Assembly (NCBI GenBank): GCA_027459725.1
Contig: DAIDHK010000002.1
Coordinates: 35,752 to 99,751, forward strand
Length of the DNA: 64,000 nt
Reading direction: 5' to 3'
Origin: Candidatus Levyibacteriota bacterium
Lineage (GTDB): Bacteria; Patescibacteriota; Microgenomatia; Levybacterales; UBA12049
Made by a program: the position numbers and the translations under genes. Below, piece by piece: positions 4,301-30,989 of this stretch. Positions within the stretch are counted from its first letter, which is position 1; each line of letters begins with the position of its first letter. Under the pieces are notes generated by a model. It was not told the DNA's origin. It saw only the letters and a list, made by a program, of their open reading frames with translations, and ran no database searches.

Positions 4301-5182
4301 TTACAAGCTATGTACTGCCGGAATAATTTTTTCACCAAAAATTCTGATAGGCTCAATCTCTTCAACATTTCTAATGCCGAAGATAACATGTGAAACCCCA
4401 AATTCTTTGAGATGCTTACACTTTTCGATTGCATCTTGTACATTTACTTTCCCATTCTCCGGTCTTATCTGTTCAAGCACTGTAATCTCAATATCATTAA
4501 AATCACGACCTACATCTTGACAATGTTTTTTTAGAACATCTATCTTATGTTTCAATTCCTCATCACCCGATCTGGCAAACAGATTACAAGCATCAGCATA
4601 CTTCGCAACTAATTTTAAGGTTTTTTGTTCACCACCACCACCAATCAGAATAGTTGGATGAGGTTTGGATATTGCTTGCGGGTAATTCATGGGCCACTTT
4701 GCATTCACATGCCTACCCACAAATTCTTTATCATCTCCTTTCCACATCTGTAATGCCATTTGCAATGTATCTTCCAGCCTCTCAAATCTTTCTTTCAAAG
4801 GAGGAAATGGGAAACCTAAAGCATTGGATTCTTGCTCATTCCAGGCTGCGCCTATTCCCATATATGCTCTCCCGTTACTTAAGACATCAAGAGTAGTGAC
4901 TGCTTTTATAAGCAAAGCTGGATGACGATAAATTACTCCAGTTACCATCGTTCCTAATTTGGTATTTTTTGTTAAGCCAGCAAGATAACCTAATGTAGTA
5001 TATGCTTCCAACATAGGCTCTTGCGGTTCACCTATATGCTGAATCTGAAAGAAATGATCCATCACCCAAATACTATAAAAACCAGCTTTATCTGCAGTAG
5101 TTGCTATTTCAGCTAATTTCTTACTAATATTTTTATTTCCCCCTTCCCAGGTAAAACGATTAATCTGTAACCCTATTTTCAT
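4301..5182 (-). CDS. Luciferase-like monooxygenase (LLM) family oxidoreductase, probably F420-dependent
   Basis: 293 aa. TIM-barrel LLM features (WVMDHF, GIGAAW, ILIGGGG). Adjacent to cofD and cofE in a co-directional operon. Confidence 0.7.
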   Translation of the reverse strand: MKIGLQINRFTWEGGNKNISKKLAEIATTADKAGFYSIWVMDHFFQIQHIGEPQEPMLEAYTTLGYLAGLTKNTKLGTMVTGVIYRHPALLIKAVTTLDVLSNGRAYMGIGAAWNEQESNALGFPFPPLKERFERLEDTLQMALQMWKGDDKEFVGRHVNAKWPMNYPQAISKPHPTILIGGGGEQKTLKLVAKYADACNLFARSGDEELKHKIDVLKKHCQDVGRDFNDIEITVLEQIRPENGKVNVQDAIEKCKHLKEFGVSHVIFGIRNVEEIEPIRIFGEKIIPAVHSL

Positions 5183-5210
5183 AATTTCACCTCCTTCCCA
5201 AAAATATTAA

Positions 5211-6131
5211 TTATTCAATTTTTATTGTCTTTTGCGCAAGTGATCTTTTAACGTCCAATGTTTTCATTATGGTATTAGTGACTATAACTTCTATATTCAT
5301 TTTCTCAATATCAACCTTTTGATCTTTATCTTTCTCATCAATGACAATAGTATCCAAAAAATCTTTATAATACTCTGCCACACCGTTTGCAGAAACTTGC
5401 ATACCCATACTCCTCATCATCTTGTCCGCTGGTCCTTTAATAGTCATACCTCCAACAATCGGACTAACTGCTATCACCTTGGCTTGAGTTTTTTTTAATG
5501 CGTCCTTGATCCCTTCAACCGCTAAAATACTACCTATACTTACTAAGGGATTACTTGGAGCTATGAGAACTTTATCCGCTTTTATAATAGAATCCAAAAC
5601 ACCCGGAGCTGGTTTTGCTGCTGTTATACCTAGAAACTCGATTCCATGTACTTCATCTTCCGTTTGGTTTTTTACCATATATTCTTGAAAATGGATTTTC
5701 CCTTTTGGAGTTAAAATGTACGTAGAAACAGGATCATCACTCATGGGTAATAACTTAAACTTTAATCCATAATTGTCTAAAATTATTTGAGTAACTTTAG
5801 TTAAACTTTTTCCTTTTTTCAATATGTCAGTACGCAAAATATGGGTGGCAAGATCTTTATCACCGATTTTAAACCAGTCAGCATATCCCATCTTCGTGAG
5901 CTGTTCCATTGTACAAAACGTATCATTTTTTATCCCCCAGCCGGTAGTTTCATTAACCACTCCCGCTAAGGTATACGTAACAATGTCTAAATCGGGTGAT
6001 ACATGCAGACCATAGAATTCTTTATCATCGCCTGTGTTTCCGATGACAATTAAATCTTCTTCATCAATTACTTGTACAACGCCCTGTAAAAATCTCGCTG
6101 CACCCACACCACCTGCTAATACTGTAATCAT
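5211..6131 (-). CDS. cofD: 2-phospho-L-lactate transferase CofD (F420 biosynthesis)
   Basis: 306 aa. N-terminus MITVLAGGVGAARFLQGV...VIGNTGDD is typical of the CofD/UPF0052 family. Adjacent to cofE. Confidence 0.75.
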   Translation of the reverse strand: MITVLAGGVGAARFLQGVVQVIDEEDLIVIGNTGDDKEFYGLHVSPDLDIVTYTLAGVVNETTGWGIKNDTFCTMEQLTKMGYADWFKIGDKDLATHILRTDILKKGKSLTKVTQIILDNYGLKFKLLPMSDDPVSTYILTPKGKIHFQEYMVKNQTEDEVHGIEFLGITAAKPAPGVLDSIIKADKVLIAPSNPLVSIGSILAVEGIKDALKKTQAKVIAVSPIVGGMTIKGPADKMMRSMGMQVSANGVAEYYKDFLDTIVIDEKDKDQKVDIEKMNIEVIVTNTIMKTLDVKRSLAQKTIKIE

Positions 6132-6136
6132 AATAT

Positions 6137-6898
6137 TTAACGAAACATATCGGTATTCGCACTACGGATTAAATCTTGACCTGTTTTATTAGCTGATATA
6201 AAGTTATATCCCCTTATAAGTGCTACTGGCACTTTTTCTGTTTTGCCCATCACAAGTTCAGCTGCAGCTGCCAGTTCATCAGCCGCAGCTATAATGGTTG
6301 CTTGTAAAAATTGTCCGTTAGTATCCTGCTTACCCCGATAGTCACAGATCGCTTGCATACCAGAAACGCCTATCGCATTATTAACTTGACCTTCTCTCCA
6401 GGGCCTACCCCACGTATCAGTTATAATTACAGCTAATTTAAGATGTTGTCCATTTAAGTAAATAAGTTTTTTTCGAATATCATCTGCTGAACGATCAGGA
6501 TCTTCTGGCAAAATAGATAGTATTTCACTGTCGTCTAAGTTTGAAGCATCTACACCTGCATTGGCACAGATGAATCCCTGTTTGGTTTCACAAATTAATA
6601 CATTATGATCCATTCGTACTATCCTTTTAGTTTGCTGTAAAACTACCTCAATATGGCGTGGATCTTTGTTTGCTTTTATAGCAATTTGTCTGGCAAATTC
6701 GGAAGGAATTATTGTCTTCAAATTAATAATTCTACCTTCTGCCTTGGAAATAATTTTTTGTGTAATAACGATAATATCACCAGCTTGTAAATTAAGATCC
6801 TGTTTTTGCAGTGCAGAATAAATAATATCTGCTATCGAGTCCTTAGATTTAATATTCTTAATATTTCTAATAGGAATGATTGTTAAAGAAGTTGTCAT
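6137..6898 (-). CDS. cofE: Coenzyme F420-0:L-glutamate ligase CofE
   Basis: 253 aa. DIIVITQKIISKAEGR ... ANAGVDASN motifs of the CofE family. The stop/start overlaps the upstream LLM gene (ATGA), suggesting translational coupling. Confidence 0.75.
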   Translation of the reverse strand: MTTSLTIIPIRNIKNIKSKDSIADIIYSALQKQDLNLQAGDIIVITQKIISKAEGRIINLKTIIPSEFARQIAIKANKDPRHIEVVLQQTKRIVRMDHNVLICETKQGFICANAGVDASNLDDSEILSILPEDPDRSADDIRKKLIYLNGQHLKLAVIITDTWGRPWREGQVNNAIGVSGMQAICDYRGKQDTNGQFLQATIIAAADELAAAAELVMGKTEKVPVALIRGYNFISANKTGQDLIRSANTDMFR

Positions 6899-7881
6899 AG
6901 AACTTTTAAACTAGGTAACACTTTTGTACCCAACATTTTAATAAGTTCCTCCTGACGATTATTAGAAGTCGTTTGAATAACTACTGTATCGACTGTCAAC
7001 TTTGTGATTAATGGAGAATATACTTTTATATAATCCTCTGCTGATGAAAGAATAGAATACTTGCTTAAGATTTCTTCCCTAGGCAAATCGTCTGCTTCCT
7101 CTTGTAATAATTTCGGTTCAACTATCGTACTTCTGTGCGGCGCGCGTAAACCTCTCCAAGGACCTAATGCATTCCATGCTTCTTGATTATCGTCAGCAAA
7201 AACACTCCAATGAGTGGCAACTAAGCCAAAACCTATTCTACCTAATCCACTTGCTTTCTCGCTTGCTGGTTGAACAAGTTCGTTCAAAGTATCCTCAACG
7301 TTTTTTACACTGCATATTAAACCATCTGAATACTCAGCTGCCAGTAATGCTGATTTATGCCCTCCCGCAGCTAATAAAATGGGGACTTTATGCAACGGTG
7401 GACTATATAGTTTCAGCTTGTCCGCTTTATAAAATTGACCGTTTTCGTTTAGTTCTTCTCCATCTAACAACTTTCTCATTATTCTAAGAGCTTCCTTCAT
7501 TCTTGCTGAACGCTCTTTATAATTTGGATAGGTATAACCAAGCGGAACCTCATTAATTGCTTCTCCCGTTCCCACTCCTAAAATAAACCTTCCATGAGAT
7601 AAACGGTCAATAGTCGCAGCAGCTTGAGCAACAACTGCCGGGTGATAACGAAATAGAGGAGTTACTACACCCGTCATTAAATCTATCTTTTTGGTTGAAA
7701 CTGCTATGGCTCCCAAAGTTGAAAAAGCGAAACCAGCTGCAGATTGATCATCCACCCATGGATTAAAATGTTCTGAAACAAAAACTCCATCAAATCCCAC
7801 ATTCTCGGCAAGAACTGCATGTTTTACTAAATCTTCAGGTTGAAATTGCTCATGGCCACAAAAGTAATAAATTTTTGCCAT
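6895..7881 (-). CDS. LLM-class F420-dependent oxidoreductase, Fgd (F420-dependent glucose-6-phosphate dehydrogenase)-like
   Basis: 328 aa. N-terminus YYFCGHEQFQPEDLVKHAVLAENVGFDGVFVSEHFNPW and GVGTGEAINE resemble the Fgd family. Confidence 0.65.
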   Translation of the reverse strand: MAKIYYFCGHEQFQPEDLVKHAVLAENVGFDGVFVSEHFNPWVDDQSAAGFAFSTLGAIAVSTKKIDLMTGVVTPLFRYHPAVVAQAAATIDRLSHGRFILGVGTGEAINEVPLGYTYPNYKERSARMKEALRIMRKLLDGEELNENGQFYKADKLKLYSPPLHKVPILLAAGGHKSALLAAEYSDGLICSVKNVEDTLNELVQPASEKASGLGRIGFGLVATHWSVFADDNQEAWNALGPWRGLRAPHRSTIVEPKLLQEEADDLPREEILSKYSILSSAEDYIKVYSPLITKLTVDTVVIQTTSNNRQEELIKMLGTKVLPSLKVL

Positions 7882-7993: not shown

Positions 7994-9511
7994 ATGAAAG
8001 TTCCTAAAAGAGTAATTCCCTCCACTATGGCCTCTCAGCACCCAGACCATGCGGATAAACCATATTGGTACCATAAGCACTTTATTGATGTCCATGCTGA
8101 ATCTGAAGAGTGTTTTAGAATGTTTTCTGAACTTGGAATAGATGAATATAAATGGGATTGGGAAGGAAAATTAGTAGATGAATCGGTTATGGAAAGAATG
8201 CTTGGTGAGCATTTCGATTTTTTTAAACGTTATCCACTTGGCGAAAAAAAATTTATAACATTTCGTTTACCAAATCCTAAAGTTGAAACAGAATTCCGGC
8301 TGGGCAGAGCTTTTCTGGGAATATTAAGTGCTGCAGCCATGGCTAAAAAAGTTGGTTTTGTGCACGCCCCTCTTTTTGAAGTAATTCTCCCAATGACTGA
8401 AACTTCTGAAGAGATGTTGGACATACAAAGTGCATTCCAGGAAATTAGTGGTCTAAAACACAAATTATATAAATTAGACAATAACATATTGGATAACATT
8501 GAATTAATACCTTTATTCGAACAGGTACAAACAATTATTAATTCCGATACGATTTTAAAGGAATATATTGAAGGATATAAGAAAATGTTTAAAAGTAAAC
8601 CTGAATATATGCGTCCTTACATAGCCCGCTCAGATCCAGCTCTCAACTCAGGATTGGTTCCTACAGTATTAGCTATAAAGATTGCTTTATCAAAATATAA
8701 AGAATTGACCAAACAACTTGATATCCCTTTCTATCCAATTATTGGCACTGCGGCTTTGCCTTTCCGTGGTGGATTAACTCCAGATAATGTTGAGTCTTTT
8801 GTTAGAGAATATAAAGGAATTAGAACAGTTCTTATCCAAGGAGGATTTCGTTACGACTACCCCAAAGATCTTGTTATCTCTGGTATTAAGAAACTTGATA
8901 CTTTATTAAGTAAACAAGCTGCTGTTGATGTTCCCAAAGTCGATGAGAAAGAAATTCAACACATCATCCCTTTTTTTGAGACATATTATAGAAAAACAGT
9001 AGAAGAAATAGCACCTGTTATCAACCAGCTTGCCTCTTTTCTACCAAAACGACGAGAGAGAGTACAACACATCGGACTGTTTGGATATTCTAGAGGTTTA
9101 GGAAAAGTTTCTCTGCCCAGAGCTATTGGTTTTACAGGAGCGCTTTATTCAGTTGGAATCCCGCCAGAATTAATAGGCACTGGTCGAGGCTTACGAATTA
9201 TTCATTCACTTGGCAAACAAAATTTAATAGATAGATATTATATAAACTTTAAAGCAGATATTATAAGAGCAGGCAAATATTTAAACAGGGAGAATCTAGC
9301 TGACTTAACACAAAATTCTCCTGTTTGGGGAGAAATTATTGATGACATTGATGCATTAGAAAAATATTTAAAGATTGATTTGGTACCAGTTACTAAAGAA
9401 GAAAAAGAACATCAAAAACTGACATCAAAAATCTACACAAATCTTAATAAAGGAGGAGATTTTCAAGACCTTATAGTAAAAGCTGGTATTCTTCGTAAAA
9501 GTCTCGGATAA
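7994..9511 (+). CDS. ppcA: Archaeal-type phosphoenolpyruvate carboxylase (PpcA/PEPcase_2 family)
   Basis: 505 aa. N-terminal IPSTMASQHPDHADKPYW matches the conserved MSTQHPDN start of archaeal-type PEPC. The size (~500 aa) also fits. Confidence 0.7.
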   Translation: MKVPKRVIPSTMASQHPDHADKPYWYHKHFIDVHAESEECFRMFSELGIDEYKWDWEGKLVDESVMERMLGEHFDFFKRYPLGEKKFITFRLPNPKVETEFRLGRAFLGILSAAAMAKKVGFVHAPLFEVILPMTETSEEMLDIQSAFQEISGLKHKLYKLDNNILDNIELIPLFEQVQTIINSDTILKEYIEGYKKMFKSKPEYMRPYIARSDPALNSGLVPTVLAIKIALSKYKELTKQLDIPFYPIIGTAALPFRGGLTPDNVESFVREYKGIRTVLIQGGFRYDYPKDLVISGIKKLDTLLSKQAAVDVPKVDEKEIQHIIPFFETYYRKTVEEIAPVINQLASFLPKRRERVQHIGLFGYSRGLGKVSLPRAIGFTGALYSVGIPPELIGTGRGLRIIHSLGKQNLIDRYYINFKADIIRAGKYLNRENLADLTQNSPVWGEIIDDIDALEKYLKIDLVPVTKEEKEHQKLTSKIYTNLNKGGDFQDLIVKAGILRKSLG

Positions 9512-18226: not shown

Positions 18227-18965
18227 ATGCAAAAAAGAAGCAAGATCATAGTTAGCGCTCACGAACTAAATAACTACGTGTTTTGCAAACGAGTATGGTG
18301 GTTAAGATTTCATGGTTTTGATCAGGAATCTAACAAGTTAGAACTTGGTACACTAAGACACGATCGTTTAGTATGGCAAGCGCTAATATCACGTAAAATA
18401 TTTATTGTGGGTTTCATACTCTTAATTATTGGCCTTGTAATTCTTGTTTATGCTTTATTATCTAATCTCAATTTATAACATGAATCCTCTCTTATTTATC
18501 TCATTTATCATTATAATATCTGGTGTAATACTAATTTTTGTTTTCAACTTTTTAGAAAATATACTTGGATCCTTGACTGGTAAAATTATCTACCATGATG
18601 CCACTCAACTTCCGGGGAAGACACTAAGAGCTAAAACTTTGCCCCTAATTGGTAAACCAGATTATATCTTAAAAGAAAACGGAGAATACTTACCTTTGGA
18701 ATTTAAAAGTGGAAAAACACCAAAACACCCATATTCTAGCCATAAAGCACAACTTATGGCTTATTGCCTTCTGATAGAAGAAAATTATCATCATCGTCCT
18801 TCTGTTGGTATTTTAAAATACCCTCAAAAAGAATTTAGAATTAAATATACTATCGAAGAAGAATCTTTAACAAGACGATTAGTCAATGAAATAATACATT
18901 TAAAAATAAGTGGTGAAGAACCACATTGTGATCACCCTCAACATAACGTTAATCTAATTGATTAA
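18227..18965 (+). pseudogene. Cas4/RecB-like PD-(D/E)xK nuclease (DUF83-like), split into two overlapping frames
   Basis: ORF 18227..18478 carries the Cas4 N-terminal NNYVFCKRVWWL (YxxCxRxxWL) motif. ORF 18444..18965 carries LIGKPDYILKENGEYLPLEFKSGK (motifs II/III), QLMAYCLL (QxxxY) and a C-terminal EPHCDHPQH. The ORFs are in different frames with a 35-nt overlap inside a hydrophobic stretch. No CRISPR array is nearby. Confidence 0.5.
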
Positions 18966-21297: not shown

Positions 21298-24200
21298 GTG
21301 TACATAATAAATTTAATACTTCAGATTATTATGTGGCATTTAAGATACTTAGTTATAGTTTTCATTTTTAGTCTTTTTTTTCTGTTAAATTCATCTTATG
21401 CATTTGCGACTGATGGATATTTTGTAATTGGAACGGGTGCAGGCGGGGGTGGAGCTGGAGGTTCCACAGGAGCAACCGGAGGTAACGGCGGAAACGCGGA
21501 TGTAACTATAAACCTAGCCACTAGTTCAGCAAATAATGTAATTTTTGGCAACGGAAGTGGCGGTGGGGCAGGTGGCAGATCTATTGGGTTCACCCCGGAT
21601 GTACGTGGGGGACATGGGGGTAGTGGCAATAACACACTTATAGGGGGATCTGGCAATGATATAATTTTCGGCCACGGATTTAATGGCAGAGACACCTCAG
21701 ATGGAGCATATTTTGCTGGCAATGGGGGTCTGGGTGGAGGAGGAGGCGGTGGTGGCGGCGGTGGATTTGGTATTTCTCCAGGTGGTGCAGGAGGTGGTAT
21801 ATGTGGGGGTGGTGGCGGAGCAGGGACTGATAACGGTGGCGGCGGTGGAATTCTAGTTACATGTAATGGAGCTAATATAGGAGGTAATGCCAATTACAGC
21901 TATGGTGGTAATGGAGGAAACTCTGGATATGATTGGCTAAACAGCCAGGGACTGGGTGGTACATATTCTAGCTACAATGGAGGAGGAGGAGGAGGATTTG
22001 GAGGAGCTACAGGAGGAACCGGATCTACCCCAGCAGGTAATGGTGACACCAAACAACACTGGTACTATGATGCGAATGGTTTAATTTATAAATACTTTAC
22101 TTTATCTGTATTACAGAACATTATGACCAACTACCCTAATTATGGTACTGGAAGCGCCACCATTAACGGTAAAGGAGGAAGTAATGAATTATATGGGCTT
22201 GGTACTGACACTACATTTATTATTGATTCAGCTGATAATGCAACTCAGGATAGAATTTGGGATTTTCATGGTAACGATAAACTATTGTTAGAAACAAATG
22301 GTCAAACAGTGGCAACTGTTGACGTAAATCATATAGTTTCAGGTGCTACTACTGGCGATTATGGATCAGGCGTCGCCAACAATGATACTCAATTTACTTT
22401 TGGAAATACCACAGTTGATCTGATAGGAGTAACATATTCTTTAAGCGCTAGTCCTAATGGAACTGTTAATGCAGTTAACCATCCTCCTACTATCTCATTA
22501 AATAGTACACCCTTAGCTTATACTCCTAGTGCAAGTGCAACTCAACTTGACTCTTCCGGATCTGTCAATGATCCAGACGGAGATAGCAACTGGAATGGTG
22601 GAACGCTGGTGGCCCAAATAACATCTAACTCCATTAGCCAAGACACATTATCCCTAAGCGGGACTAATATTTCCATAGATGGGACGATATTGAAATATAA
22701 TGGTAACCCTGTTGGTGCTATCTATCCCAGTGGCGGTTCTGTAACTGGCAATGGAATATTAACCTTAACTTTTGATAGTGGGGCTACTAATGCCATTGTC
22801 CAGGATATGTTGCAAAATATACGATTTTATACAAATACAGCTGGAACTTATAATCGCATTGTGACTGTGACTGCAACCGATTATGCGGGTGCATCTGCAT
22901 CGGCATACCGGGAAGTCGATGTTGCCGGCGCAGGATCTATTACACTTTATACAGTAAACGCAAATGCCGCTGTAGGAGGCTCAATAAGTCCCACTAGCTG
23001 GAATGTTGTTAGCGGCAGTACTTATCAGTTCAGTATCACACCATCCACTGGATATAGTATCGGCTCTGTGACAGGCTGTAGCGGCTCAATCAGTGGTAAT
23101 ACATATACCACAGGAAATATAGGCTCAGCCTGTGACATTTCAGCCAGCTTTACCCCCAATACTTACACTATGGATTTCAACAGCCAAGGAGGCAATTCTG
23201 TGAGCTCTATCTCTCAAGGTTACAATTCATCATTGACATTGCCAAGCGCTACAAAAGGGGGTTACACATTGTCTAGCTGGAATACAGCCCCAGACGGTAG
23301 TTTAACTTCGTACTCTCCTGGATCAAGCATCAATATGCCCTATAATGGAATTACTCTTTACGCACAATGGGTCATCGAAAATACATCTTCCAACAGCAGC
23401 TCATCAAGTAATAATTCAAATTCCATTAATAGTACTAATCCACCTGCATGTTCTGAAGCCATTCCTACCGGCACTCCTAATATTTATGAATTGAATCCCA
23501 CCACTAATTCAGTAATACTGTATTTTACTCCTGTTTCGAATGCTAATAGTTATTATATTCGCTATGGGACTGATTCCAGCGAGAATCAATTTGCTACTTC
23601 ATTTTCTGATTCAGATCATAGTGGTGCGGTGAGTTTTACCATAAACGATTTGCTACCTGGTTTAACATATTATTTTTCTGTCAGAGGTGGAAATGGCTGC
23701 GCACCAGGAGATTGGTCAACTACATCTTCAGTACGAACAACTTCTATTCAAAGTCTTTCTACCGGGCTATCGGCTAGTCCATCAAATGTCATTCCCACTC
23801 CCGATCAAAACAAAAAAATCAATATTGTTTCTGAAAAGCTGACGACTCAACCCTCAAGTGTTTGTTCATATACTGTACAGTCCGGAGATAGCTTGTGGGA
23901 AATTGCTCAAAATAAACTCAACAATGGTACTCAATACCAAATCTTGGAAAAATTAAATAATTTAACTTCACCTTTAATCTCTTCCGGGCAAGTTTTAAAA
24001 TTACCATGTAATAATCAGCCACAAACATTAGTCCAGGCACAAAATGAAATAAAGCAAACAGGTATAGATTTAAATGTTCAGGTTTTGAGTATGGCTGGTA
24101 CTCCAATGTCAGGTGTCTGGGTAACTCTTCATTCCAAGGTACAGAAAGCCTTAACTGATAAAAACGGAGTTGCACACTTTATAAATATAGATACTGGTCA

Positions 24201-24426
24201 CCATCAGGTAATATTGGCTTACAATGGATTTAACGGTGAACAAAATATTTCTATTACCGGTAAACAAAAACAACAGACTTTAACATTAAGAGTACAGCTA
24301 AATAATACAACACTAACACCTTATGTATGGGGTTTGATAGGCGCTCTAATATCTATAATAATTGTTTTAGTATTAATAATATTCTTACTTTTTAAGAAAA
24401 AACACAAAACTAAAAAGATTGAGTAA
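21298..24426 (+). CDS. Large multi-domain cell-surface protein (Gly-rich RTX-like repeats, InlB B-repeats, Fn3-like, LysM, C-terminal TM anchor)
   Basis: 1042 aa. Signal peptide. About 200 codons of GGxGG repeats including the RTX-like nonapeptide GGSGNDIIFG. A divergent InlB B-repeat (VNANAAVGGSISP...GYSIGSVTGC) and a Listeria-Bacteroides repeat (GYTLSSWNTAPDGS...TLYAQW). LysM (YTVQSGDSLWEIAQ...). C-terminal helix LIGALISIIIVLVLIIFLLFKKKHK. Confidence 0.75.
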   Translation: MYIINLILQIIMWHLRYLVIVFIFSLFFLLNSSYAFATDGYFVIGTGAGGGGAGGSTGATGGNGGNADVTINLATSSANNVIFGNGSGGGAGGRSIGFTPDVRGGHGGSGNNTLIGGSGNDIIFGHGFNGRDTSDGAYFAGNGGLGGGGGGGGGGGFGISPGGAGGGICGGGGGAGTDNGGGGGILVTCNGANIGGNANYSYGGNGGNSGYDWLNSQGLGGTYSSYNGGGGGGFGGATGGTGSTPAGNGDTKQHWYYDANGLIYKYFTLSVLQNIMTNYPNYGTGSATINGKGGSNELYGLGTDTTFIIDSADNATQDRIWDFHGNDKLLLETNGQTVATVDVNHIVSGATTGDYGSGVANNDTQFTFGNTTVDLIGVTYSLSASPNGTVNAVNHPPTISLNSTPLAYTPSASATQLDSSGSVNDPDGDSNWNGGTLVAQITSNSISQDTLSLSGTNISIDGTILKYNGNPVGAIYPSGGSVTGNGILTLTFDSGATNAIVQDMLQNIRFYTNTAGTYNRIVTVTATDYAGASASAYREVDVAGAGSITLYTVNANAAVGGSISPTSWNVVSGSTYQFSITPSTGYSIGSVTGCSGSISGNTYTTGNIGSACDISASFTPNTYTMDFNSQGGNSVSSISQGYNSSLTLPSATKGGYTLSSWNTAPDGSLTSYSPGSSINMPYNGITLYAQWVIENTSSNSSSSSNNSNSINSTNPPACSEAIPTGTPNIYELNPTTNSVILYFTPVSNANSYYIRYGTDSSENQFATSFSDSDHSGAVSFTINDLLPGLTYYFSVRGGNGCAPGDWSTTSSVRTTSIQSLSTGLSASPSNVIPTPDQNKKINIVSEKLTTQPSSVCSYTVQSGDSLWEIAQNKLNNGTQYQILEKLNNLTSPLISSGQVLKLPCNNQPQTLVQAQNEIKQTGIDLNVQVLSMAGTPMSGVWVTLHSKVQKALTDKNGVAHFINIDTGHHQVILAYNGFNGEQNISITGKQKQQTLTLRVQLNNTTLTPYVWGLIGALISIIIVLVLIIFLLFKKKHKTKKIE
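21430..22030 (+). repeat. GGN codon-repeat tract (poly-Gly coding) inside the surface-protein gene
   Basis: Runs of ggt/ggc/gga/ggg codons. It is locally GC-rich and strand-asymmetric, and it creates a spurious Pro-rich antisense ORF. Confidence 0.7.
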
Positions 24427-25041: not shown

Positions 25042-26466
25042 TTATTTAAAACTAGATAACTCTCCCCAACGCTTACCGGTCTTAACTTCAACAACTAATG
25101 GAACAGCCAAAGGATAAACACAACAAAGAACATCTTTTATTTCATTAATTACTTTCTTCATTCTGTGATTATCCTTCTCAGGGATTTCAAATACCAAATC
25201 GTCATGAATCTGAAGTAGCAAAAAAACATCTGGATATATATCTAGAATCTTTTCTTGGACATCCACCATAGCTTTTTTCATGAGATCAGCTGCAGATCCT
25301 TGTACCGGGTAATTCATTAATACACGTCTCATATTGTTACTGATAAATTTCTGACCAGGAAATTCGAAGACATAGCGTCGACGGCCAAGCAATGTTTCGA
25401 CTACTCCATTGAGTTTCGCATTTTTTAAGTACTCATCATAGTATGTCTTGATACTGGGATAAGAGATATAAAAATTTTTAATAAACTGTGCCGCATCAGC
25501 TTCGGAAATATGTAATCCTGTACTCATCCCGTAGCTACTCATACCATAAATGATGCCAAAATTAATTGTTTTACCAACTGCTCTTTGTTGCTTGGAGACC
25601 TGTTCGTAAGAAATATTAAATAATTTGCTGGCTGTCAGTGTATGTACGTCTTGGTTATTTTTAAATGCTTTAATTAATTCTTTTTCATCTGCTAAATGCG
25701 CCAGAACTCTTAACTCCTGCTGTGAATAATCAAAAGAGACTAAATTCATTCCCTCGGAAGCAACAAAACATGATTTTATTTCCAGTCCAATCGGAGAAGA
25801 TACAGGAATATTTTGCAGATTCGGATTAGATGAAGCTAAACGGCCAGTGTTTACATAAACCTGGTTATATGTAGTATGCACACGATCATTTTGATCTGTT
25901 TTTGTTATTAAACTTTCTACGTAAGTCGATCTTAGCTTAGTTAATTCTCGATAACTCAGTATATGTGAGATTATAGCAAACTGATCATTATATAATGATA
26001 ATTCTGATTCATTGGTTGCATATTTGCCCGTTTTAGTCTTACCTAATGGCACTCCGACTTTTTCAACCAAAAAATGTCCCAACTGAATAGGTGAATTAAT
26101 ATTTAATCCCCCACCTGTTTGCTTATTAATCTCTTCTTCTAAGTCTAAGATCATTCCCTCAATCTCTTTTCCAACTTGCTTTAATTGTTTGGTATTAAGT
26201 AGTATTCCTCGTTGCTCCATCTTAAATAGAACTTTAGCTAGAGGCATTTCAATCTTATTAAATAATTTTTTAAGTTGAGAATTTTTGTCAAGTAGTTGTT
26301 CTTGAACACGAGCCAATTCCAATAAGTTATCAACTTTGTATTTTTTAAAGGTTTCTTCTTGAGTACCAATAGAATGACCATCACTAAGCAAAGCCTCGGC
26401 AATATAGCAATCAAAGTTTGCCGAAAAATCTTTGGAAGTTTTGCTATCCCAGATTGGTTTAAGCAT
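25042..26466 (-). CDS. polA: DNA polymerase I, polymerase domain only (no 5'-3' exo and no complete 3'-5' exo domain)
   Basis: 474 aa. Begins near the ExoIII-like DCYIAEAL motif, followed by IEMPLAKVLFKMEQRGI. Family-A motifs RRxxK (RAVGKTINFGIIYG), QIHDDLVFE and YPVQGSAAD are present. An in-frame TGA lies 8 codons upstream of the ATG. Confidence 0.8.
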   Translation of the reverse strand: MLKPIWDSKTSKDFSANFDCYIAEALLSDGHSIGTQEETFKKYKVDNLLELARVQEQLLDKNSQLKKLFNKIEMPLAKVLFKMEQRGILLNTKQLKQVGKEIEGMILDLEEEINKQTGGGLNINSPIQLGHFLVEKVGVPLGKTKTGKYATNESELSLYNDQFAIISHILSYRELTKLRSTYVESLITKTDQNDRVHTTYNQVYVNTGRLASSNPNLQNIPVSSPIGLEIKSCFVASEGMNLVSFDYSQQELRVLAHLADEKELIKAFKNNQDVHTLTASKLFNISYEQVSKQQRAVGKTINFGIIYGMSSYGMSTGLHISEADAAQFIKNFYISYPSIKTYYDEYLKNAKLNGVVETLLGRRRYVFEFPGQKFISNNMRRVLMNYPVQGSAADLMKKAMVDVQEKILDIYPDVFLLLQIHDDLVFEIPEKDNHRMKKVINEIKDVLCCVYPLAVPLVVEVKTGKRWGELSSFK

Positions 26467-26509
26467 CTTGCCGTTAGTATAGCGAAATCAAATGGGTTTG
26501 CCAATTATC

Positions 26510-27060
26510 TTCTGCTTTGTAATTGAGCCAAGCGCTGTGAAGCTCTTGTTACTGCCCGATCTGAGGTATAATATCCTAAAGTTTTTAGGATATTCTCTTC
26601 TAGAGTTTTACGTGGTTTAACGGTTAATTCTTTTACCACCTTATTACCAGGATTTATTTCCTCATTTTCCTGCAATTGAACCTGTTACAACTAATTTACT
26701 TATTCCCTCCTCACCCGCAGTACGCAATAAATTTAAAATTACTTCCACATTTATTCTGCAAGCAGCATCTCTATCTATAAGATTTAAACGGCAACTGGAT
26801 TGATTATTACTCCATCTTTACCCACCTCGTGGGCAAATCTATTCAAACTTTCACTATCACTTAAGTCTCCCTGAACAAAACGAATATAGGGATATTAGCT
26901 GGATGGAAACAATTTCATTGTTTCAGTAGGATCACGCACAAGAGCTACAATTTCAGTTTGGGGAGTGTAGTCTGCATATCATGTAATCTCTGCTCCAATT
27001 CCGCCTGTTACTCAAGTAAGTCCCAATCTGACTGGCAAATAAAAACCTGTCTATAAATAT
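26510..27060 (-). pseudogene. Decayed NAD-dependent epimerase/dehydratase (SDR) gene
   Basis: Manual translation of the minus strand gives SDR pieces in three frames. They are TGGIGAEI (Rossmann), YPYIRFVQGDLSDSESLNRFAHEVGKDGVII, NVEVILNLLRTAGEEGISKLVVTGSIAG and the C-terminal KELTVKPRKTLEENILKTLGYY, separated by stops and frameshifts. Confidence 0.6.
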
Positions 27061-27158
27061 GACGATTTTGGAAAAATCTGAGCATATTAATTCATCGTTA
27101 CTTAAATTTCGTATAGAATACTGCCCTTCATTAACTTAATTTCTATGTTTACTGATTT

Positions 27159-28736
27159 TTATTGAGCTATGCCTGATATGATATAAAGTGTAATGGCACG
27201 TAAAGATGTACCGTAGTAACCAGTCGGAGAGTTATTGATTAAATTAGTCAAACTTTGTTGTGCGTATGTTGAGCTCGGATTTACTTGACCGGCAGCCGCA
27301 TATGCTGCTATAAAAGTTGTATCTAAATAGGAAGTTAAAGGTTGCCCTGAAAGTGTATACCCACTCTTAAGATTGGACATTCCGACCTTACTGAAAAAAT
27401 TTGCTTGTTTCTGTAAGACATTTTCAGCATTTGGGTCGCCGTTTGATTTGTAATCCAATAATAAACGAATTGGTGTCCTTACAGCATCGTAATAAAAGTC
27501 ATTAGTATATTGATCAAAAGAAATATTGGCATTGGAAAAATTGCTATTTAACCAATCTGGTAACAATCCAGTGGAGCTATTGGCAGCTTGATTTAGCCAG
27601 GAACTGGTGGCATTTGCAATGGAATTCCACTGGCTATCACCACTGATCTGTGCAAAAGCACGATAATATGATGGTTCTAAATAAGAAGGATTTATTACGT
27701 CCGTTTGACCCCAGTTGTCACCAGGATTTAGATAGTTACCATTGATCAATTCAGTCGATTTCATATGTGTGATGAGATTACGTGCGGCGTTGTCATAACC
27801 ATTGCCCGGCCATTTAGAGTTCGCTTTAATCAAAGCATAAGTCATATCCTCATCTGCATCAGTTGCAGATCCCTGTCCTATGACATTACCATTTTGATCA
27901 ATATCCCAATTCATCAGACCTTTACCATCCATATATTTTTGTCCATACGCCCAAAGTCCATCAAATGTTGATTTATCCCCTGCAAACGCACTTAGCAACA
28001 TACCATAGCCTATCCCCTCACTCACTGTATCGTTGTTATTTTCAGGTCTAACCACTCGGAACATCCCAGAACTTACTGGTCTAACATATATTGATTTCCA
28101 TTGACTGTATGCACTTTGGGCAGCATTGTAAGCAGACAAATTAATATTTACCGCTTGTGGTGAAGAAGTAGGTGTAGAAGCAACTATTGTAGGCATAACT
28201 GCAGGATTACTAGCTACAGGAGTAGGGGTTAAATTAGATGGAGATGCGCTTGTTGTTAAACTCGTGGAAGGCTGCGTAACTACAGGACCGCATGCAGAAA
28301 AAATGGTAACAGTGGAAAGATTGGAAAACCAAGCGTAATTGCTTGACCAATTAGAGTTGAATAAACCAGCTTCAATAGTATATGTACCAGCTGGCAAAAC
28401 AGTAGTAGTTACCGAGTATGTGGTTCCTCCTGCTATACTAAATGCTTGAAATGATTTCTGGTGAGAAGAATTGTATAGTTCAATATCAATAATATTACCT
28501 TGAGGAACAGATTGTGAAAAAGTTAATGTTATATCAAGAGTGTTAGAAGTCGGAGCGGTTGTAGAGATCTGTGGAGGAGTCGTCGAAGCAGCAGAAGATA
28601 TAGGAATACGAATTAAAACGCCCGCGGATAAAATAAATAAACTTAAAAGGCCAGACAGAATAAATTTTCTCGGTCTTACTGTTTTCATAGGCAGAGAACA
28701 GAATATACCAGACGAAAAAAACATTGTCAAAGTCAA
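27159..28736 (-). CDS. Secreted glycoside hydrolase family 8 (endoglucanase/chitosanase-type)
   Basis: 525 aa. Signal/TM N-terminus and an S/T/P-rich linker. GH8 signatures TVSEGIGYGM and ATDADEDMTYALIKANSKW. Confidence 0.7.
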   Translation of the reverse strand: MTLTMFFSSGIFCSLPMKTVRPRKFILSGLLSLFILSAGVLIRIPISSAASTTPPQISTTAPTSNTLDITLTFSQSVPQGNIIDIELYNSSHQKSFQAFSIAGGTTYSVTTTVLPAGTYTIEAGLFNSNWSSNYAWFSNLSTVTIFSACGPVVTQPSTSLTTSASPSNLTPTPVASNPAVMPTIVASTPTSSPQAVNINLSAYNAAQSAYSQWKSIYVRPVSSGMFRVVRPENNNDTVSEGIGYGMLLSAFAGDKSTFDGLWAYGQKYMDGKGLMNWDIDQNGNVIGQGSATDADEDMTYALIKANSKWPGNGYDNAARNLITHMKSTELINGNYLNPGDNWGQTDVINPSYLEPSYYRAFAQISGDSQWNSIANATSSWLNQAANSSTGLLPDWLNSNFSNANISFDQYTNDFYYDAVRTPIRLLLDYKSNGDPNAENVLQKQANFFSKVGMSNLKSGYTLSGQPLTSYLDTTFIAAYAAAGQVNPSSTYAQQSLTNLINNSPTGYYGTSLRAITLYIISGIAQ

Positions 28737-30062: not shown

Positions 30063-30989
30063 ATGAGCTGGAACGAAGTTTTAAATGATTTTATTTTACA
30101 AGCACAACAAAATAACCTAAAAACTTCAACGTATCCAAAAGAGTGGGATAGCTTAAGATTGAGAATATCTTTTGGTATGGGAGCACCTGCAAGAATTCCT
30201 TGGGTTGCATTTGTAGCTCCTGATATGGAAGTTAGTAAAGGATTTTATCCGGTTTATTTGTATTATAAAGACTCAAATACCCTAATACTCTCGTACGGCA
30301 TAAGCGAAACAGAGGAATTTGGGAAATCTTGGCCTTCGGAAATAATGAGCTCCGCACAAACTATAACAGCTTATTTTGATAAAAAAGTTGCCAGATACGG
30401 AGACTCATTTGTTTTTAAAGCTTATAAAGTAAATGTTAAGGGAAATAAGGTTGAACTTGCTTATCCGGAAAGTAAAAAAGTTGCAAGTTCACAAGATATT
30501 GAATCAGATTTAGATACTCTTTTAGATTATTACAAAAATGCAGTTAACCTTAGTTCAAGTAGAATATCTCCTGAACTAAGTCAGGGTTTATTTTATATGG
30601 AAAAGCAATTAGAGGATTTTCTGATTGCTAACTGGCCACATACTGAACTTGGAAAGAAATTAGATTTAATAATTGAAGAAGGAGAATTATTAAGCCAACA
30701 ATATAAAACTGATTTAGGACCAATTGATATTTTAGCAAAGGATAAAAAAACCGGAAGTTATGTTGTAATTGAGCTTAAAAAGAACCAAACCAGTGATGAC
30801 ACCATTGGACAATTAGCTCGATATATGGGTTGGATAAGACTTAATAAGAAAGATGATAAAGTAAGAGGCATTATTATCGCCGGTCAATATGACAAAAAAT
30901 TAGATTATGCTTTAAAAATGGTTCCCAATACAGAGGTGTTTATTTATGAGGTTGATTTTAAATTAAACTCTTTTGAAAGAGTGTCATAA
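30063..30989 (+). CDS. DUF3578 (McrB-N-like modified-DNA recognition domain) fused to a NucS/DUF91-like PD-(D/E)xK nuclease domain; candidate modification-dependent (type IV-like) restriction endonuclease
   Basis: 308 aa. N-terminal half LRISFGMGAPARIPWVAFVAPDMEVSKGFYPVYLYYKDSNTLILSYGIS matches the DUF3578/MrcB_N pattern (SFGxG...IPWIAF...KGxYxVYLF...LSL). C-terminal half GPIDILAKDKKTGSYVVIELKK...IGQLARYMGW...VRGIIIAG matches the NucS C-terminal nuclease core (GxIDIL-x-D...VVIELK...Q...Y...RGILIA). Preceded by a ~360-bp AT-rich intergenic region. Confidence 0.6.
   Translation: MSWNEVLNDFILQAQQNNLKTSTYPKEWDSLRLRISFGMGAPARIPWVAFVAPDMEVSKGFYPVYLYYKDSNTLILSYGISETEEFGKSWPSEIMSSAQTITAYFDKKVARYGDSFVFKAYKVNVKGNKVELAYPESKKVASSQDIESDLDTLLDYYKNAVNLSSSRISPELSQGLFYMEKQLEDFLIANWPHTELGKKLDLIIEEGELLSQQYKTDLGPIDILAKDKKTGSYVVIELKKNQTSDDTIGQLARYMGWIRLNKKDDKVRGIIIAGQYDKKLDYALKMVPNTEVFIYEVDFKLNSFERVS

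Follow-up and report, generated by a model that had tools for sequence, protein, structure and literature searches.

The usual picture of DNA polymerase I (Pol I) is of an enzyme with three domains, of which the 5'-3' nuclease is the indispensable one. The gene considered here does not fit that description. A 64,000-nucleotide stretch of DNA from a Candidatus Levyibacteriota bacterium (assembly GCA_027459725.1, contig DAIDHK010000002.1, positions 35,752 to 99,751; the whole stretch is referred to below as the window) carries on its reverse strand, at 25042–26466, an open reading frame (ORF) that begins with ATG and encodes a 474-residue, polymerase-only orthologue of Pol I. Levybacteria are part of the Microgenomates group of the Patescibacteria, which are also referred to below as the candidate phyla radiation (CPR). 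Polymerases that work without a 5'-3' nuclease of their own have been described in several settings. A survey that covered about 3000 complete genomes of bacteria, and in which candidate phyla are unmentioned, found a flap endonuclease (FEN) domain, fused or solo, in 99.8% of them (PMC12926913). The arrangements described there include genomes with a PolA1-like polymerase plus a solo FEN, and the window polA shares with them the defining feature of a split Pol I, namely a polymerase gene without a FEN domain. It likewise lacks a 5'-3' exonuclease, for which a solo FEN would be the expected supplier, but here the 3'-5' exonuclease domain is largely deleted too. CCPol is, like the window protein, a natural family-A polymerase with an incomplete 3'-5' exonuclease domain, of which it keeps three helices (PMC10201439). 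CCPol works with MP and Cch2, both encoded nearby, and has priming activity, whereas the window polA has no conserved neighbour and lies in a chromosomal context, with no integrase or helicase linked to it or its relatives at 37 loci. In the split T7-like phage PolA the exonuclease gene is adjacent (PMC10201439), whereas an epimerase pseudogene lies upstream in the window. Identity of the window polA with either of these systems was considered and rejected because partner genes and a mobile context are both lacking, and because its sequence is nearest to cellular Pol I. Taq and Bst polymerases keep a complete but inactive exonuclease fold, of which only about 60 residues remain here. The Klenow, KlenTaq and Stoffel fragments are also polymerases without a FEN domain and were the top structural matches. 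They are engineered proteins that keep the whole exonuclease fold and whose activity is a feature of the laboratory products, whereas the window protein is a natural product with about 60 residues fewer; its residue 1 corresponds to approximately Taq 354, which makes it shorter than KlenTaq or Stoffel by that amount.

The sole Pfam domain in the 474-residue protein is PF00476 (DNA_pol_A; residues 93–469, E = 3.4e-125), which scores 418.4 bits (cut-off 34.3) with profile positions 2–381 of 381 covered. No match to PF02739 or PF01367 was found in the protein. When full-length Taq Pol I was used as a tblastn query against the window, only Taq 420–827 aligned, at 42% identity to the 474-residue protein, and nothing FEN-like was detected. 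Taq 1–300 gave no match in the window, and the same query finds the FEN domain in 100 control loci. About 75 Pelagibacter full-length PolAs from a scan of genome contigs with the single protein served as a positive control for FEN detection. These results bear out a preliminary description of the gene, made from the sequence alone, in that no 5'-3' exonuclease domain is present. Pfam searches of nearly all window ORFs of at least 120 residues revealed no 5_3_exonuc or DNA_pol_A_exo1 domain and neither a DnaQ-like exonuclease nor another polA, and none of the tRNA or Rfam elements of the window bears on the polA finding. The Pol I equivalog models are by far the top-scoring NCBIfam families for the protein. 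NF004397 is matched over positions 458–888 of 889 with 511.6 bits against a cut-off of 720, and TIGR00593 with 501 bits against 600; both scores fall short because half of each model stays unmatched. The protein therefore lacks the FEN domain, the complete 3'-5' exonuclease fold and the equivalog score of a canonical Pol I, has the features of a family-A polymerase, and is most aptly called a reduced orthologue of Pol I.

The polymerase domain is orthologous to that of bacterial Pol I (PolA1; E. coli PolA, Taq and Bst), with motifs A, B and C present and the same fold, although the FEN domain is absent. All residues of the family-A catalytic motifs are in place (D246 and E251; R295, K299, F303 and Y307; H421, D422 and D423). 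Two departures from bacterial Pol I run throughout the clade to which the protein belongs: Gln replaces Ile or Val in motif A, and HDD replaces HDE in motif C. The glutamine, Q250, shows no variation among 40 clade members and occupies the position of Taq I614, which governs fidelity and sugar selection; in I614K Taq the incorporation of ribonucleoside triphosphates is 150–1500-fold better and fidelity is lower (PMC5627062). Any functional effect of the Q250 and D423 changes is a matter of inference only. A profile built from 40 clade members aligned residues 58–467 with KlenTaq 126–535 (E = 1e-124), and the Bst large fragment was also matched over 147–579. The AlphaFold2 model of the 474-residue protein has a predicted local distance difference test score (pLDDT) of 88.7 and a predicted template modelling (TM) score of 0.86, and Foldseek matched it to KlenTaq and the Bst large fragment with TM-scores of 0.85–0.89, or 0.79–0.89 once Mycobacterium smegmatis Pol I is included. 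Alignment and model together show a polymerase active site predicted to be complete, in a KlenTaq-like fold.

Ahead of the polymerase domain only about 60 residues of the 3'-5' exonuclease domain are left, and about 160 Pol I model positions of that domain are gone. Residues 1–62 are predicted by AlphaFold2 to adopt a strand-helix-strand-helix-helix-helix arrangement with pLDDT of 83–97, and a comparison of this stub by hhalign with the exonuclease domains of full-length PolAs gave a probability of 95.7% (E = 1e-8). The residues kept invariant within the stub are W6, D7, K9, F18, D19, A23, E24, L26, L27 and G30. In the MAFFT and hhalign alignments with full-length PolAs, ExoI and the β-sheet core are missing and the Y-x3-D ("YAAEDA") stretch of ExoIII falls within the deletion, while FDCYIAEALLSDG aligns onto FDTMLAAYIL, EDTMLISYVLDAG and DDPMLLAYLLDPS, which form the helix (Taq 371–380) that lies between ExoII and ExoIII. 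The preliminary description had read an ExoIII-like motif, DCYIAEAL, at the start of the protein; the peptide is indeed found there, at residues 19–26, but the helix to which it belongs follows ExoII and is not ExoIII. The same description held that no functional 3'-5' exonuclease domain remains, and with this the alignments agree: because ExoI is absent and the Y-x3-D stretch of ExoIII is deleted, the 474-residue protein, as predicted from its sequence, cannot have a working 3'-5' exonuclease. The stub may be kept for structural reasons, as in CCPol.

The polA gene is intact and conserved. The best 120 database homologues are 57–81% identical to its product, are 435–517 residues long, contain PF00476 only and have the same N-terminus; those that are named in their source records are called Levybacteria, Roizmanbacteria, Saccharimonadales or "Patescibacteria group", with one "Acidoferrales". 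The databases already contain hundreds of such short polA sequences under generic names, and text searches of the literature on Pol I of CPR, Patescibacteria and Microgenomates found no description of a polymerase-only architecture. In an exhaustive HMMER search of representatives at 50% identity, two clusters only are of the short type (480 and 478 residues; 587 and 432 bits), and next below them come Pol I proteins mostly of 800–1000 residues that score at most 375 bits. Metagenome loci at 47–73% identity cover residues 1–470 and have no FEN nearby, whereas most of those at 46% or less align only from about residue 40–60 and are PolAs of 870–950 residues with FEN fused in the same ORF. By these comparisons the short polymerases form one compact, discrete clade. 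At about 34 independent clade loci an in-frame stop lies 3–70 codons upstream of residue 1, as it does in every locus not reaching the end of its contig, and these stops comprise all three stop codons at variable distances. The closest relative (L001, assembly GCA_027459745.1, 81% identity) has the same order of a GH8 gene, polA, a NUDIX gene and a 1040-residue surface protein, and its GH8–polA spacer is only 91 bp long. The nonsynonymous divergence (dN) between the window polA and that of L001 is 0.13 (0.28 for residues 1–62 and 0.11 for the remainder); synonymous sites are saturated, which leaves the NG86 dN/dS ratio undefined, and dN alone is given. Upstream neighbours in the relatives are GH8, an HTH protein, a VTT-domain protein or a sugar transporter. 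Around 37 clade loci neither a conserved operon partner nor a detached exonuclease gene was found, and no flanking family is common to more than four of the 37; without shared neighbours, polA thus stands alone. The dcw cell-division cluster is near polA both in the window and in L001.

A spacer of 692 bp (26467–27158) separates polA from the upstream GH8 glycosidase gene (27159–28736). The in-frame TGA that the preliminary description placed eight codons upstream of the ATG is present, and the decayed epimerase that it reported in the DNA beyond could be recovered as fragments in two frames on the strand of polA, which include the Rossmann motif VTGGIG, "GDLSDSESL", "VVTGSIAGK" and the C-terminal "KPRKTLEE". 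Stitched together, these pieces match PF01370 with 32.6 bits (E = 7e-8) against a cut-off of 20.9. That description had also allowed for an exonuclease encoded upstream in another frame; the spacer holds the epimerase pieces and no exonuclease in any frame. The epimerase pseudogene is unrelated to polA and merely happens to occupy the spacer. It is fully absent from the 91-bp spacer of L001 and provides an example of ongoing gene loss.

The 18 nucleotides preceding the ATG are identical between the window and L001, and the remaining spacer differs. Among 31 distinct clade loci, the sequence TATA[AC][TC] ends 6–9 nucleotides before the ATG in 28, and a Shine-Dalgarno-like core occurs in four only. 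A box at this distance from the start codon implies leaderless or near-leaderless transcripts, and the polA mRNA is probably of this kind and probably transcribed from a promoter of its own. The comparison of the clade loci shows this ATG to be the predicted start of polA translation. Elsewhere in the window a TATAAT-like box directly precedes 15 of 53 ORF starts and a Shine-Dalgarno sequence three of them, which suggests that leaderless mRNAs may be the norm in the source organism.

A search profile built from the FEN domains of CPR-like full-length PolAs retrieved almost exclusively proteins of 290–340 residues with PF02739 and PF01367 alone, and a second search with one FEN sub-family yielded 120 further proteins whose names include Woesebacteria, Shapirobacteria, "Microgenomates bacterium DG_75" and Patescibacteria. 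Stand-alone FENs of 285–330 residues form more than 200 clusters and are abundant in Microgenomates-type contigs. They are complete genes flanked by unrelated genes, in orders such as TsaE-FEN-Fpg, TsaE-FEN-histidine kinase and FtsH-FEN-glycosyltransferase-Fpg. For one Microgenomates FEN the best NCBIfam match is to the Pol I model, over positions 2–296, which outscores the models of stand-alone exonucleases; this FEN and the short polymerase (458–888) together resemble Pol I minus positions 297–457. The split is visible in the contigs L166–L171 (L166:3234–7826), in which TsaE is followed by a FEN gene (294 residues), a 4-bp ATGA overlap, a 433-residue polymerase-only polA, DUF3048 and holA. 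In this second CPR lineage the FEN gene is adjacent to polA, whereas no FEN gene is linked to polA in the window clade. Because the 433-residue polymerase is only 40% identical to that of the window and has DYSQVELR as motif A, its lineage is, by sequence comparison, an independent polymerase-only case, with the 3'-5' exonuclease domain removed altogether. Since solo FENs of about 300 residues are abundant in named Microgenomates lineages, a separate FEN is the expected partner of the window polymerase, and by analogy with those lineages we strongly infer that the source genome has one.

We put at roughly three in four the probability that the gene encodes the functional Pol I of a compact Patescibacteria clade of the Microgenomates type, in which the ancestral three-domain polA has been cut to the polymerase domain plus an exonuclease stub of about 60 residues and flaps are removed by a separate FEN. 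Such a minimal Pol I would fill gaps in Okazaki-fragment maturation and excision repair, would do so without proofreading and without a flap nuclease of its own, and would leave the removal of 5' flaps and RNA primers to a stand-alone FEN that acts in trans, is about 300 residues long and has a Q-x-x-L-[FLIV] tail. Several observations speak against this interpretation. Neither tblastn with Taq nor the Pfam searches revealed a FEN gene in the 64-kb window, and none turned up in about 450 kb of flanks of clade members; nor could any instance of a FEN and a truncated polA in one genome be placed among the FEN and clade loci. The promoter scan taken alone is not above chance for the region, with 6 matches against 9.0 expected. 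Some clade members (L172–L176, protein P0050, GCA_035533875.1; L002, protein P0031, on a 751-kb contig; and L180) lie beside genes unusual for CPR, namely an RND efflux pump, PurH, FabA, and oxidases of the PQQ-repeat and FAD types, and one of these bins is named Acidoferrales. The host range of the clade may extend beyond typical CPR; alternatively, some of the bins may be mixed or mislabelled.

The remaining point of this kind is that the gene could encode an accessory second family-A polymerase, for example for low-fidelity repair or translesion synthesis, beside a three-domain Pol I elsewhere in the genome. Full-length CPR-like PolAs with the same unusual motif A, FDYSQQELR, occur in similar samples, and the glutamine in place of Taq I614 hints that fidelity or sugar selection is relaxed, for which I614K is a precedent (PMC5627062). 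The solo FENs, however, are abundant exactly in Microgenomates-type lineages, which fits a split and not a duplication, and the named full-length PolA fragments with a 3'-5' exonuclease Pfam domain come from Parcubacteria-type bins such as Falkowbacteria. Moreover, the top NCBIfam family is the Pol I equivalog rather than an accessory PolA family, and a wide gap in score sets this compact clade apart from the nearest full-length relatives. We therefore regard an accessory role as unlikely.

A recent, genome-specific N-terminal deletion, or a pseudogene fragment left by the same decay that affected the epimerase, would be in keeping with the pseudogene directly upstream and with the in-frame stop eight codons before the ATG, and the preliminary description had raised the possibility of such an N-terminally deleted copy. 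That suggestion does not survive comparison with the relatives. The same architecture, start and length are common to more than 100 homologues and to the roughly 34 loci with their differing neighbours, and the polA of L001 is the same although the epimerase remnant is absent there. The promoter-like box and the 18 nucleotides before the ATG are conserved, the value of dN is low and no catalytic motif is damaged, all of which makes a recent deletion very improbable. An origin from a phage or mobile element, as a truncated polymerase with an adjacent partner on the model of staphylococcal CCPol or the split T7-like PolA, deserves hardly more credence. Mobile elements and phages are known to encode truncated PolAs with few exonuclease-domain helices (PMC10201439), and the small conserved exonuclease stub recalls CCPol. 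No conserved neighbour, exonuclease gene, helicase or integrase adjoins polA at the 37 loci, however, the top matches in phage collections are only about 40% identical and no nearer than cellular Pol I, the dcw cluster is close by, and the best NCBIfam match is to cellular Pol I. Some CPR lineages recode TGA, but a protein longer than annotated, whether by readthrough or recoding of the TGA or by a frameshift into an upstream exonuclease frame, is scarcely credible given that long window ORFs (of 1042 and 960 residues, for example) are intact under the standard code, that the upstream DNA consists of epimerase fragments, that other loci use all three stop codons at variable distances, and that the -10 box lies 6–9 nucleotides from the ATG.

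Table 1. Positions of polA, its parts and the adjoining upstream features in the window, and of the stand-alone FENs in other contigs
Feature	Position	Strand	Basis
polA coding sequence (474 residues + stop), polymerase-only DNA polymerase I orthologue	25042..26466	-	ORF list, PF00476, NF004397, Taq identity
Thumb, palm and fingers of polymerase domain, residues 63–474	25045..26280	-	PDB profile match, Foldseek
Motif C QIHDD, residues 419–423; catalytic D422; D423 in place of usual Glu	25198..25212	-	alignment, numbering
Motif B (O-helix) RAVGKTINFGIIYG, residues 295–308; R295, K299, F303, Y307	25543..25584	-	alignment, numbering
Motif A FDYSQQELR, residues 245–253; catalytic D246, steric-gate E251	25708..25734	-	alignment, numbering
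Predicted C-terminal remnant of 3'-5' exonuclease domain, residues 1–62	26281..26466	-	AlphaFold2, hhalign, MAFFT, invariant columns
Promoter-like TTGGCA-17 nt-TATACT; -10 box ends 9 nt from ATG; without Shine-Dalgarno	26476..26504	-	scan
In-frame TGA, exactly 8 codons before ATG	26488..26490	-	sequence
Decayed NAD-dependent epimerase/dehydratase pseudogene (stops, frameshifts, internal deletions)	26505..27035	-	three-frame translation, PF01370
Stand-alone FENs examined (proteins P0271–P0493)	L164:4918-5826; L165:2507-3379; L166:3680-4564; L177:5764-6675		

Among 201 stand-alone CPR-type FENs of 285–330 residues, 159 end in Q-x-x-[LMIF]-[FLIVMW], as compared with 1.3 for shuffled sequences; examples of these tails are QMSLI, QMELL, QMKLI, QMGLF and QKNLF. 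The C-terminal tail looks like a β-clamp-binding motif and would have its counterpart in the PIP box that FEN1 carries in archaea and eukaryotes. A similar stretch of the Q..[LM]F type is found at the same place, the linker between the FEN and exonuclease domains, in several full-length CPR-like PolAs, and no clamp-type motif of this kind is present in the truncated PolA. For Pol I itself a clamp motif has been reported only in Mycobacteriales, at a different site (2026 preprint 10.64898/2026.09.19.751633). We tentatively propose that lagging-strand maturation in the window clade is split between the proofreading-free Q250 polymerase and a FEN tethered to the β clamp by its Q-x-x-L-[FLIV] tail, an arrangement that would be convergent with the archaeal and eukaryotic PCNA–FEN1 (PIP-box) toolbelt. 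The polymerase might in that case be error-prone or ribonucleotide-tolerant and might add to the fast sequence evolution seen in these bacteria.

If the reduced Pol I is what we take it to be, a cellular orthologue of Pol I can shrink to approximately KlenTaq minus 60 residues and be stably kept in that form, and a second lineage would have become polymerase-only independently. The annotation of candidate-phyla genomes should accordingly not label such short polA genes as broken or partial. For polymerase engineering the clade provides a minimal scaffold of natural origin, whose motif A is naturally of the I614Q type, and the system is a testable case of uncoupled gap filling and flap cutting in which the nuclease appears to bear the clamp-binding signal.

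Several other genes of the window were recorded. Clustered genes of the cofactor-F420 type occupy 4301–7881 on the reverse strand and 7994–9511 on the forward strand and encode a CofD-family protein, the F420-0:gamma-glutamyl ligase CofE and two luciferase-like monooxygenases. Next to this cluster lies an archaeal-type phosphoenolpyruvate carboxylase (PEPcase_2), and both are unexpected in a small-genome bacterium of the candidate phyla. Two further forward-strand genes encode nuclease-type proteins: a 173-residue Cas4-like PD-(D/E)XK protein (18444–18965), with no CRISPR array in the window, and a 308-residue protein (30063–30989) with an MrcB-like N-terminal domain and a NucS/PD-(D/E)XK C-terminal domain. 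The forward-strand gene at 21298–24426 encodes a secreted protein of 1042 residues with a long Gly-rich N-terminal region, and it is conserved beside polA and the NUDIX gene in L001, where the orthologue contains Flg_new, fn3 and LysM domains and a C-terminal membrane anchor. A 165-residue ORF at 21396–21893, on the strand opposite to this gene, is probably spurious.

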